DNA of 64,000 nucleotides from Escherichia coli. Lineage in GTDB: Bacteria; Pseudomonadota; Gammaproteobacteria; Enterobacterales; Enterobacteriaceae. Each line of letters starts with the position of its first letter. The stretch's first letter is position 1. The stretch lies in the NCBI RefSeq assembly GCF_030013205.1, contig NZ_CP122648.1. The stretch is one strand, 5' to 3'. Shown here in pieces: positions 15,567-18,763 of this stretch. The position numbers were made by a program, and so were the translations under genes. The notes beneath the pieces were generated by a model. The model worked only from the letters and a program-made list of their open reading frames with translations, searched no databases and was not told where the DNA came from.

Positions 15567-15606
15567 ACCTTACCTCATCAATCGCTTGTCGTTATATGTT
15601 GTGTTG

Positions 15607-15646
15607 TGAACATCTATCCATTTAGACGTCCAGATGTAAAGATGAA
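15607..15646 (-). promoter_or_regulatory. tandem MetJ boxes (metF operator)
   Basis: tandem 8-bp units resembling AGACGTCT (…TTAGACGTC CAGATGTA AAGATG…) 40-80 bp upstream of metF start. Confidence 0.5.
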
Positions 15647-15947
15647 GGAAAAGCCGAGGGGCGTCAACCGAAAAATGACCAATGATGGTGAGGAAAAATC
15701 AGGGAAGTTGAAAAAAACTCATCTTAATTAGAGGCGATAAAAGATTTCTCTATAGCGCAATCCACCTCGCACGTTTTGACTGATATTCTGACAACACAGC
15801 GACACCTGGGCTTATTCGAAAAACAACGTCCTGCCACCGGATGGTGATGCTAAGGCATCTGATTCGGCCTGCGCCCTCGCGTAGGCCGAATACTGGATCT
15901 GCAAAATCAACTGGTAACAAACAGATGAATCAACTCAATACGTACTT

Positions 15948-17501
15948 TTACTTGATATCTTTCACGCGCATACCGTTGATCTGTTCATCCGTGATGGTGT
16001 TACCCGCTTTGAAGTAATCAACCACGGCGTGATAAACGTAATAACCGCCCGTTGTGTTACGCGCTTTCCCTTCGGTAAAGGCGGTAAAACCATCTCCACC
16101 ATCAGCAAGGAAACTCTGGGTGGCAATAGAATAAACTGTCGCATCTTCAATGGGTTTGCCATTCAGAGTCAGCGTGATTACCCGCTGACCAACCGGCTTA
16201 TTGCTGTCGTACTTCATTTCCAGGCCTTTCGATACCTGTAAAACGCCATTACTTAAACTTGCGCCGTGTTCCATCAAACTGCGTAATTGTTTACCCGTGA
16301 GTTCCATCGTCACCAGTTCGTTGGGGAACGGGAAGGTACTGATGACGCCGCCCATCGTAATCGCCCCTGCGGGGATCTCATTGCGAATGCCGCCAGAGTT
16401 GGTTAACGCCAATTGGGTGTTTTTACCCGCCGCTACCAGTAAAGCATCAGCCGCCAGGTTCCCGAGGGAAGCCGATTCACCATAGGCACGTTTTAATTCA
16501 ACCGGCGATTTCGCGACCGTTTGTTGCACCACTTCATCAAGCTTTTTATTCCAGCCGTCGATCACCTGTTTCGTTTGCGGATCGGGCTTCCACTCGTCGG
16601 CGTAAATGGTTTTAAGCTCGAAGTTTTTCACCGTAAAATCATGCGGCTTCTCTTTGTAGTCCAGTACCAGTTTACCCACATCAATCCCACCGCTGTCAGT
16701 GGAGAGGATGAGCGTATTGCCGACTTTAATCGGTTCCGGCGTACCCACATGCGCATGTCCGGTGATCAAAATATCCAGCCCTTTCACCTGACTTGCCGTC
16801 TGAATATCTTTATCCAACGCGCGACGCACATCGGTCCCTCCCATACTGGACTGGCGGGCTGGAACACCTTCGTGGATCAGGGCGACGGTCAAATCAACCT
16901 TGCCTTTGAGTTCATCGATATAACGTTGTAGCCATTTAATTTCATCGCGCGCTTCAATACCCACGCGCGTGGCAGCAGATACCGTATCGTTGAAGGCAAA
17001 TACTCCGTGCAAACCTATAACGCCTATTTTCACGCCGTCTTTTTCGATGATGGTATATGGCTTATCCCAGAATGATTTACTGCTGTTCTGATAAAAAACA
17101 TTGCCCTGCACAATAGGGAATTTTGCCTGACTCAACTGTAATAATGTGTTGTCCCAGCCGTGGTCAAATTCATGGTTGCCTATCGTGACGGCATCAAACG
17201 GCATAGTATTCATAATATCGATAATAGCCTTACCTTTGGTCAGGCTGCTGATATATGGCCCGGTAAAATAATCACCCGCATCAAAAAACCATGTCGCTTT
17301 ATTTTTTGCTTTTTCTTGCTTAACCAGCGTAGTGATATTTGCCCAGCCACCAATATCCCGTTTACCGTCAGCGATCCACGGCACTTTATAAGGCTCGACA
17401 TGCGCATGGAGGTCGTTGGTATAAATGATGGTGACATCTTTGGCGCAAGCCCAGAACGGCAATGTTAATGCGATACCCGCAGCAAGTATTTTAATTTTCA
17501 T
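15948..17501 (-). CDS. secreted bifunctional metallophosphatase/5'-nucleotidase family protein (UshA/CpdB-like)
   Basis: 517-aa ORF with signal peptide ([18 protein letters not shown]) and calcineurin-like phosphoesterase motifs (DLHAH…GDYF…GNHEFD…GHAH); sits in an insertion between metF and metL. Confidence 0.8.
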
Positions 17502-17633
17502 AAATAGTCCCTTTCAGTGATTTAAAGGATTGCTACATTACGTTCTGAAAGAGTTATTTATGTGAGAGTAATCACATCCACAGGGGAGCGTTGCCGGACA
17601 AAATCAACGACCTTGTGAAATCGTTGGTGATAT

Positions 17634-18350
17634 ATGTCGACTCTGTTTACGATTAATGCCTGCAAGTCGTTTGGTTGCCGTAATTTAGGGCAGCCAACAT
17701 CGACAGATTATAGCTGGCCCGACTATCGACTGGGTTATCCGGCATTGCACTGTCGGGCATGCGGAAGTTACCCGCCGTTGTTTGACGAGCAACAATTTCG
17801 TGACTGGTTGACAGTTCACTTATCTACTTTTGCAACAGAGAAAGGCCATTTTTGCCCGGTATGTTATGGTACAGATACGATTTGTTATGGTCACAATCCA
17901 CAGGGTTCGCAACGCATTCAATGCCGTAACTGCAAAAAAGTATGGACACCCAAACAATATCAGAAAGAAATAACGCCTCCTGAAATAATCGAAACGGTTG
18001 CTTTTCTCGTGCCATTTCAGGGAGTCAGCAGCGGGCAGAAACTGTATGTTTTAATCAGTTTTGATGCTCTTCGCGGTAATATTCTTCATCTTTCTACTAA
18101 TTACACGCAGCATCAGGCTGGAGAAAGTCTGCATTATCGATACAGAGGGAATGCAGAACCAGAGTTACACGAGAGTAATATTGTACAACGCGTTGATATG
18201 CGCGAAGCACAATTTCTACGCCGCAGTCAGTTTGATGAAATTCAGTATGGCAGCGCAGCGCTCAAACGCAATGCTAAAGGTGTTATTCTGCGTCCGGTTA
18301 TCACTGCACACGGGCATTTCAGAGTACTGATATTCTCTTCCCTACAGTAA
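17634..18350 (+). CDS. hypothetical protein with two CxxC-type Zn-ribbon motifs
   Basis: 238-aa ORF; CRACGS…CPVCYG…CRNCKK cysteine pairs; AT-rich; no core-genome counterpart at this position. Confidence 0.5.
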   Translation: MSTLFTINACKSFGCRNLGQPTSTDYSWPDYRLGYPALHCRACGSYPPLFDEQQFRDWLTVHLSTFATEKGHFCPVCYGTDTICYGHNPQGSQRIQCRNCKKVWTPKQYQKEITPPEIIETVAFLVPFQGVSSGQKLYVLISFDALRGNILHLSTNYTQHQAGESLHYRYRGNAEPELHESNIVQRVDMREAQFLRRSQFDEIQYGSAALKRNAKGVILRPVITAHGHFRVLIFSSLQ

Positions 18351-18478
18351 AAACACATGTAATTTCACACGAGTGTTTTTTAAGAGGTGCCATTATTACG
18401 GCATGGGCTGATCTGTTTCGCCAACAGCAAGGTGAGATTTGGTTTATTGAAGAGGAAATAGCTGACGATACCGATAAT

Positions 18479-18763
18479 ATGCCCTGGCGTTTTCAGAGAA
18501 CAACTTATCACGGCTGGTGGAAAAATCAGTGGCAACTCTGGGTTCAGGGAAAAAATCGTAAAATGGTATGTGCATTAACGGGCGGAAATATCAGCAAAGC
18601 TGAAATGCTCTCTTTAGCAACCAGCAGACATTTTATCGACTGGCTACATAAACAAGCAGTATTTACTCACAGCACCCCGCTTTCCGCAGGGCGCGTTACG
18701 CAAATACTGCTTTCTCTAGCTCAGGATTACAACAACTGCGCCAGGCGGTTAATATCCGACTGA
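18479..18763 (+). CDS. hypothetical protein; possibly the displaced 3' part of the upstream gene
   Basis: 94-aa ORF in the -1 frame relative to 17634..18350; its frame is open from 18329, overlapping the upstream ORF end; overlaps metL 3' end by 37 bp. Confidence 0.3.
   Translation: MPWRFQRTTYHGWWKNQWQLWVQGKNRKMVCALTGGNISKAEMLSLATSRHFIDWLHKQAVFTHSTPLSAGRVTQILLSLAQDYNNCARRLISD

Follow-up and report, generated by a model that had tools for sequence, protein, structure and literature searches.

Escherichia coli UshA, a periplasmic UDP-sugar hydrolase and 5'-nucleotidase, and human CD73 both combine Metallophos and 5_nucleotid_C domains with a leader peptide and a set of metal-site motifs. A 2026 comparison of genomes of extraintestinal pathogenic E. 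coli (ExPEC) lists a chromosomal locus, metL..metF, as genomic region GR 31 in BEN2908, UTI89 and CFT073-type strains, and its passages on the region read the locus as nucleotide dephosphorylation coupled to nucleoside uptake via Tsx (PMC12928451). The 64,000-nucleotide (nt) stretch of E. coli DNA analysed here, hereafter the window, carries between metF and metL a gene with the domains, leader and motifs of UshA and CD73 (NT1) and, divergent from it, a gene for a zinc-ribbon protein (ZnR). GR 31 and the window agree in chromosomal site and in the first nucleotidase gene. Taking together the anatomy, distribution, synteny, homology and fold described below, we consider it very probable that NT1 and ZnR form an ancestral chromosomal two-gene module, which the last ancestor shared by Escherichia, Citrobacter, Salmonella, Klebsiella and Kluyvera already had between metF and metL, which about one-third of E. 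coli keep and which K-12-type lineages have lost, with NT1 as a periplasmic nucleotidase, ZnR as its divergent partner and CRP as their regulator.

The metF-metL segment and its distribution in E. coli

In the window, metF (14676-15566) and metL (18727-21159), both on the minus strand, are separated by 3,160 bp from the metF start to the metL stop, as opposed to 348 bp in K-12 MG1655. A preliminary description of the window, made from the letters alone, had placed the two genes as close neighbours in K-12 and proposed a strain-variable insertion of about 3 kb at 15567-18726, a proposal that was to fall if K-12 had the same genes there. Inspection of the 348-bp gap of MG1655 shows no nucleotidase or zinc-ribbon-type gene, and the K-12 arrangement given there was right. 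The BLAST junctions with a K-12-type locus (L004) show that 3,009 bp here (15717-18725) stand where K-12 has 197 bp, the homology on the metF side ending at 15716 and restarting at 18726, a single base short of the stop codon of metL. The extra DNA is real, but the first 150 bp of the proposed interval (15567-15716) are a shared metF upstream region, 97% identical to K-12 up to 15716 and about 80% identical to its counterpart in Citrobacter and other genera, and the strain-variable segment is confined to 15717-18725. The 197 bp of the K-12-type locus contain a repetitive extragenic palindromic (REP) element, and local alignments of these 197 bp with the 3-kb segment score no better than shuffles. 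Because the 197 bp resemble the 3 kb no more than chance allows, the difference between K-12 and the window is a replacement rather than a clean insertion; the idea that the 197 bp are a remnant of the module was rejected on the same alignment scores and on the REP element inside.

The repeat search found no direct or terminal inverted repeats that coincide with the junctions at 15716/15717 and 18725/18726, and short repeats such as the 11-nt GGAAAAATCAG were rejected as flanking repeats, since they are chance matches and none stands at a junction. Domain searches of the proteins of the segment found no integrase and no functional or standard transposase domain, and an Rfam scan of 14300-19000 at E<=1 gave no match, tRNA-like features included. 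These searches agree with the preliminary description, which had reported no flanking direct repeats, integrase or transposase. Across the whole metF-metL stretch the porcine strain K_EC180 matches the window at 100% identity.

The strain variability that had been proposed is borne out by a survey of 5,426 complete E. coli genomes, in which 1,845 bear the module and 3,576 (66%) have the K-12 allele, with 3,405 records at >=99% identity in the search with the K-12 allele. In essence, then, E. coli has two alleles at this locus. The spacing is 889-891 bp in every sampled genome without the module. Module-bearing genomes have a median of one copy and a maximum of two. Two matches to the chromosomal locus fall on plasmid-labelled records, probably because replicons were wrongly assigned or because plasmids carry large pieces of chromosome.

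The module occurs in two forms. The short form, as in the window, is found in about 1,173 genomes, ST131 strains included, and the long form in about 660, including CFT073, Nissle 1917, APEC O1, ATCC 25922 and SCU-111. In the long form, ZnR and metL are separated by genes for two more nucleotidase paralogs, which are 516 and 539 aa long, and for a 286-aa channel of the Tsx family (positions 4447-8594 of the SCU-111 locus, L005). The window matches the long form at 93-99% identity through metF, NT1 and the first third of ZnR, with NT1 DNA at 96.5% in the comparison with the B2 long form. From about 17975 on, inside ZnR, the identity to L005 drops abruptly to 58-79%, about where the zinc-ribbon part of ZnR gives way to the RNase H-like part. 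This drop points to a recombination breakpoint inside ZnR, which makes the B2 long form, as judged from the alignment, a mosaic. Derivation of the short form from the B2 long form, by deletion of the two extra nucleotidases and the channel (NT2-NT3-tsx) through ATACAA microhomology, was rejected, since ZnR directly abuts metL in the outgroup genera and the long form has the breakpoint in ZnR. Strain HS-02 (NZ_CP172818.1) was considered as a partial-deletion intermediate and discarded; its locus contains about 0.8 kb of T/C-rich low-complexity DNA (L036, 3220-3990) with a 43-nt T run, likely a long-read assembly artefact that masks the real allele.

Ancestry of the pair and the direction of change

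A scan for ZnR relatives, with one genome per species, gave 30 loci, onto which marker proteins were mapped. Eight Citrobacter genomes have the order katG-metF-(variable cargo)-NT1(-)-ZnR(+)-metL-metB-metJ. The same order is found in Klebsiella pneumoniae, K. oxytoca, K. spallanzanii, Superficieibacter, Kluyvera, Salmonella enterica subsp. arizonae and Pseudocitrobacter, as well as in E. whittamii and another Escherichia species. A mobile island would be absent from relatives, and at least seven other genera have this pair at the orthologous site. The divergence is core-like, with NT1 DNA of E. coli 79-82% identical to that of other genera and the flanking metF, metL and metB 82-86% identical. 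The preliminary description had treated the segment as an insertion with an unclear acquisition mechanism, and this claim does not hold, given the same site in at least seven other genera, the core-like divergence and the one near-identical 197-bp allele in genomes without the module. Because the pair predates Escherichia between metF and metL, the K-12 state is most simply a loss. An apparent single deletion or replacement in K-12-type lineages would have left the 197 bp of REP-containing DNA, and a single event fits because the K-12 allele is uniform and the spacing is identical in the sampled genomes without the module.

Four points weigh against this ancestral origin and later loss. The direction of change is argued by parsimony from one genome per species, with the metF-metL junctions of E. 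fergusonii, E. albertii, E. marmotae and S. bongori outside the sample. The B2 long form is a mosaic with its breakpoint inside ZnR. The G+C content of NT1 and ZnR is under that of the flanks in every host. Lastly, at least one exchange between genera has taken place at the locus; in Pseudocitrobacter vendiensis (L006, 8363-11128) the NT1 and ZnR DNA is 92-93% identical to that of E. coli and metF, metL and metB are 84-86% identical, a pattern that indicates a recent inter-genus homologous replacement and makes re-acquisition by homologous recombination in some E. coli lineages possible.

The rival account that survives best, an early loss in E. coli followed by regain in B2, D and F-type lineages through homologous recombination via metF and metL from related species, builds on the last of these points and seems to us improbable. 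The Pseudocitrobacter exchange, the breakpoint inside the long-form ZnR and the fairly divergent flanks among E. coli (96.5-99%) speak for it, but NT1 of the window and of the B2 long form are 93-99% identical, equal to the adjoining metF, with no step at the left junction, and the module is already present in E. whittamii and in the other Escherichia species. Less credible still is a horizontally acquired islet that entered the metF-metL interval in an ancestor of certain E. coli lineages. The segment is missing from 66% of the complete genomes and contains a transposase-like zinc-ribbon gene, and its G+C content is lower than that of the flanks, with 44.7% for the ZnR gene and 48.1% for the nucleotidase gene, where metL has 58.2% and the window as a whole 52.1%. 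This G+C content, however, is typical of these genes in every host. It follows the host, being higher in higher-GC hosts, and stays below that of metL everywhere, so that low G+C content is a trait of the NT1 and ZnR genes rather than a sign of recent arrival. The islet is further opposed by the equal position of the pair in many genera with core-like divergence, by the lack of repeats, integrase or tRNA in the searches of the segment, and by the K-12 allele, which is the uniform and derived-looking one. An ancestral module lost in K-12-type lineages thus remains the preferred explanation, and it has a corrective value; K-12 would be the derived state at this locus, and with no insertion to account for, the lack of a mobility signature is no longer a puzzle.

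The taxa that have the pair differ in the DNA beside it. From the metF promoter to the 3' end of NT1 there is a spot whose cargo changes with the taxon (L017, L022, L025 and L006 at about 6.7-8.3 kb; L007, L009 and L028; L026), and this spot is the true variable hotspot of the locus. In Citrobacter, Klebsiella and Pseudocitrobacter the cargo is a LysR regulator with a carboxymuconolactone-decarboxylase-like protein, in E. whittamii, the other Escherichia species and K. spallanzanii it is a phosphotransferase-system EIIBC with a LacI-type regulator, and other taxa have other genes. A second, paralogous cluster is located at another chromosomal site, with NT3-tsxL-NT2-NT1 on one strand and ZnR divergent. 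It is carried by Enterobacter spp., E. albertii, some E. coli, Escherichia sp. and Citrobacter sp. wls619 (L013, L015, L016, L029-L032, L014). Some genomes have the paralogous cluster and the metF-metL copy together; in E. albertii a paralogous copy elsewhere was the sole yield of the scan.

NT1, ZnR and their shared control region

NT1 (15948-17501, minus strand) is an intact gene for a 517-aa, putatively secreted metallophosphatase/5'-nucleotidase, identified by Pfam and by a structure match. The Metallophos domain (PF00149) covers residues 24-252 with E 4.1e-12, and the C-terminal 5_nucleotid_C domain (PF02872) covers residues 335-477 with E 5.2e-39. The binuclear metal-site motifs DLHAH, DAGD, GNHEFD, IHEG and GHAH are all intact in the translation, and the N-terminus is a hydrophobic, signal-peptide-like leader that ends in ACA, followed by KD. 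The domains and the leader agree with the secreted 517-aa 5'-nucleotidase-family gene that had been proposed for the minus strand. Residues 19-517 are 98% identical to PDB 3IVD/3IVE, deposited as "Nucleotidase", which represents the same family member with a solved fold and about 10 substitutions. 3IVD/3IVE is a structural-genomics entry for the putative 5'-nucleotidase of CFT073, with bound uridine or cytidine; literature searches on c4898 and 3IVD found no enzymology.

The similarity of NT1 to UshA is limited. NT1 scores 151.5 bits with the UshA equivalog model NCBIfam NF007109, below the cutoff of 600, and phmmer matches it to UshA structures with an E-value of only about 1e-22, in the N-domain. 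NT1 is a paralogous family member and not a UshA ortholog. The protein would be exported by the Sec pathway and act as a binuclear-metal 5'-nucleotidase, dephosphorylating nucleotides in the periplasm for uptake of nucleoside and phosphate; in the long form, the nucleosides released by NT1 would feed the dedicated Tsx-like channel. PADLOC defence models matched neither NT1 nor ZnR. On the 3' side of NT1, an inverted repeat at 15862-15891 (ATTCGGCCTGCGC / GCGTAGGCCGAAT) has 13-nt arms that are 92% complementary and a 4-nt loop; the likeness of this hairpin to REP elements was judged by eye, and Rfam gave no match.

NT1 and ZnR are separated by an intergenic region of 132 bp, which is strikingly conserved across genera in an alignment of about 19 orthologous and paralogous loci from more than 10 genera. 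It contains a perfect CRP consensus site, TGTGAGAGTAATCACA (17561-17576), centred at a distance of 67.5 bp from the ATG of NT1 and of 65.5 bp from that of ZnR. This is the sole perfect match to TGTGA-N6-TCACA in the 64-kb window, where 0.16 are expected. In more than 10 genera, orthologous as well as paralogous loci keep the site in this position with zero to two mismatches. A CRP-like site about 75-90 bp upstream of the start codon of ZnR-family genes is found at the enterobacterial loci and at three of the six distant loci examined, the sites of the latter having one mismatch and standing 79-88 bp upstream. Because a perfect and conserved CRP site stands in the region that they share, both divergent genes are predicted to be under cAMP-CRP control, like other nucleoside-scavenging genes. 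Two further elements are conserved. The box TTACGTTCTGAAAG (17538-17551), between the CRP site and the NT1 start codon, is near-invariant in the aligned loci, and an inverted repeat, CAACGACC-N6-AATCGTTG (17605-17626; CAACGA...TCGTTG), flagged as a hairpin directly 5' of the ZnR ribosome-binding site, has a 3' arm, AAATCGTTGGT, that is almost invariant across genera. The box and the repeat are candidate operator or RNA elements. A promoter consensus scan found fewer sites than in shuffles, none of them usable, and no clear CytR operator was identified.

The plus strand of the segment was described before as AT-rich DNA encoding one or more zinc-ribbon proteins. The zinc ribbon is there, but comparison with intact alleles shows one gene for a 376-aa "cytoplasmic protein" with InsA-like zinc ribbon and RNase H fold, ZnR (17634-18763), not several, and this gene is a pseudogene in the window. 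A 1-bp deletion between 18329 and 18330 splits it into plus-strand open reading frames of 238 aa (17634-18350) and 94 aa (18479-18763); the 100%-identical gene of K_EC180 is labelled "cytoplasmic protein, frameshifted" by RefSeq. Its 3' end overlaps the 3' end of the convergent metL by 37 nt (18727-18763), which the preliminary description had not seen; the same overlap is found in E. whittamii and Pseudocitrobacter, and in Klebsiella and Citrobacter a gap of 10-110 bp lies between them. The deletion occurs in 17 of the 5,426 complete E. coli genomes, all of them porcine (O139:H1, enterotoxigenic E. coli (ETEC), Sus scrofa), and it is a recent, lineage-specific inactivation. Because all 17 carriers are porcine, the window belongs to a pig-associated lineage, in which the inactivation of ZnR leaves the nucleotidase as the only intact gene of the pair.

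No Pfam family covers ZnR. Searched alone, the E. coli sequence gives sub-threshold zinc-ribbon matches, and in PHROGs there is a weak match to the zinc ribbon alone. An exhaustive search gave 118 clusters (at 50% identity) that match ZnR at E<=0.001, and a structure search adds members from Vibrio, Photobacterium, Proteus and Serratia, which are often auto-annotated as "IS1 family transposase". PDB sequence matches from the ZnR profile follow the Cys patterns of C2H2 zinc fingers and were set aside as compositional. From an alignment of 55 family members, AlphaFold2 gives a confident model, with a predicted local distance difference test score (pLDDT) of 94 and a predicted template modelling score (pTM) of 0.93. 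In the model, two zinc ribbons at the N-terminus precede a beta-beta-beta-alpha-beta-alpha-beta core, which can be superposed on DDE enzymes and is an RNase H-like (DDE transposase/integrase) fold, with weak Foldseek matches in the PDB. Across the 55 sequences C97, C100, R197 and H228 are invariant, and the acidic residue at 247 is always present, with those at 144 and 201 in 76% and 87%; no canonical acidic (DDE) triad is fully conserved in the alignment. The second zinc ribbon aligns with InsA of K-12 IS1 (hhalign probability 96.8%, E 2.6e-10), and PF03811 matches nine of the 55 members at E<=0.001, the E. coli protein alone falling below the threshold. In the 450-480-aa relatives from Vibrio, Proteus, Serratia and others, an InsA-like helix-turn-helix (HTH) follows the zinc ribbon; the enterobacterial proteins of 371-391 aa, including the 376-aa protein of E. 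coli, do not have this segment. The ZnR profile shows no homology to the catalytic part of IS1 InsB (hhalign probability 0.2%), and the score of 20.8 with the IS1 transposase model NCBIfam NF033558 is below the cutoff of 100.

It is hardly credible that ZnR is an active IS1-like transposase with the nucleotidase as cargo of a mobile unit, as the InsA-like ribbon, the RNase H/DDE-like fold, the "IS1 family transposase" annotations of relatives and the paralogous cluster at a second locus in some genomes might suggest, in view of the low NF033558 score, the InsB result, the lack of a fully conserved canonical triad in the alignment and of terminal inverted repeats, and the single copy in fixed synteny across genera. 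On its copy number, its fixed synteny and the lack of terminal repeats, ZnR does not appear to be an active IS1.

In nine of the nine cases with retrievable contigs, distant relatives of ZnR, at 25-40% identity, are beside genes for nucleoside or nucleotide scavenging, and nearly always divergent from them. Some adjoin 5'-nucleotidase genes; elsewhere the neighbour is a porin, accompanied by a class B acid phosphatase and by a class II cyclic-nucleotide phosphodiesterase. Phosphorylase genes adjoin other relatives: a nucleoside phosphorylase together with nupC, a phosphorylase with deoB and a nucleoside:H+ symporter (Nuc_H_symport), or a phosphorylase with transaldolase, deoB and nupC, followed downstream by tsx and adenosine deaminase. 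The remaining neighbourhoods have deoCAB, either with transaldolase and adenosine deaminase or as nupC-deoCAB, where TatD and a Bmp nucleoside ABC transporter flank the opposite side of the gene. Because these neighbourhoods and the CRP-like sites recur in distant relatives, ZnR seems to be functionally tied to scavenging genes, most plausibly as a transposase-derived regulator, a tie that is associative in its evidence. We therefore put forward, tentatively and at somewhat less than even chances, that this gammaproteobacterial family of Enterobacterales and Vibrionales stems from an IS1 InsA-like DNA-binding module joined to an RNase H-like domain, and that it has been domesticated to serve operons for nucleoside and nucleotide scavenging as their dedicated partner, most likely as a transcription factor or, alternatively, as a nucleic-acid-processing enzyme. 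A simple DNA-binding model is weakened, however, by the fact that the enterobacterial branch has lost the HTH. Literature searches, including one for a transposase-derived nucleoside regulator, found no paper describing the ZnR family.

Comparison with described systems

Neither the region nor its nucleotidase is new, since annotation, a solved structure and a published list of genomic regions already cover them; the ZnR family and its link to scavenging are the sole lead with potential for discovery. For E. coli biology, about one-third of strains would have a third periplasmic nucleotidase, as predicted here, beyond UshA and CpdB, and B2 ExPEC would have up to three more nucleotidases and a second Tsx-like channel. 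The carriers of the module include ST131, CFT073, Nissle-type and porcine O139/ETEC lineages, and the enzymes could alter the use of extracellular nucleotides in the gut, in urine and near host purinergic signalling. If the proposed role of ZnR is true, a transposase-derived family would bring a further regulator or enzyme into a pathway whose map, through CRP, CytR and DeoR, is regarded as complete.

Compared with GR 31, under which the long version with the two extra nucleotidases and the Tsx-like channel is listed, the window has the short two-gene form, and the 3' part of its frameshifted ZnR is only 58-79% identical to that of the long form; the passages on GR 31 contain no discussion of ZnR or of ancestry across genera (PMC12928451). 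The module resembles the CRP/CytR-controlled scavenging genes (tsx, udp, cdd, deo, nupC and nupG) in its perfect CRP site and in its predicted role in nucleoside supply, and deo, nupC, udp and tsx-type genes adjoin the relatives of ZnR. With IS1, ZnR shares the zinc ribbon of the zinc-ribbon/HTH DNA-binding protein InsA, to which its second ribbon aligns and the longer family members align over the HTH too. It differs from IS1 in that enterobacterial ZnR has no HTH and no InsB-like part, is not mobile and has its own, predicted RNase H-like C-terminal domain.

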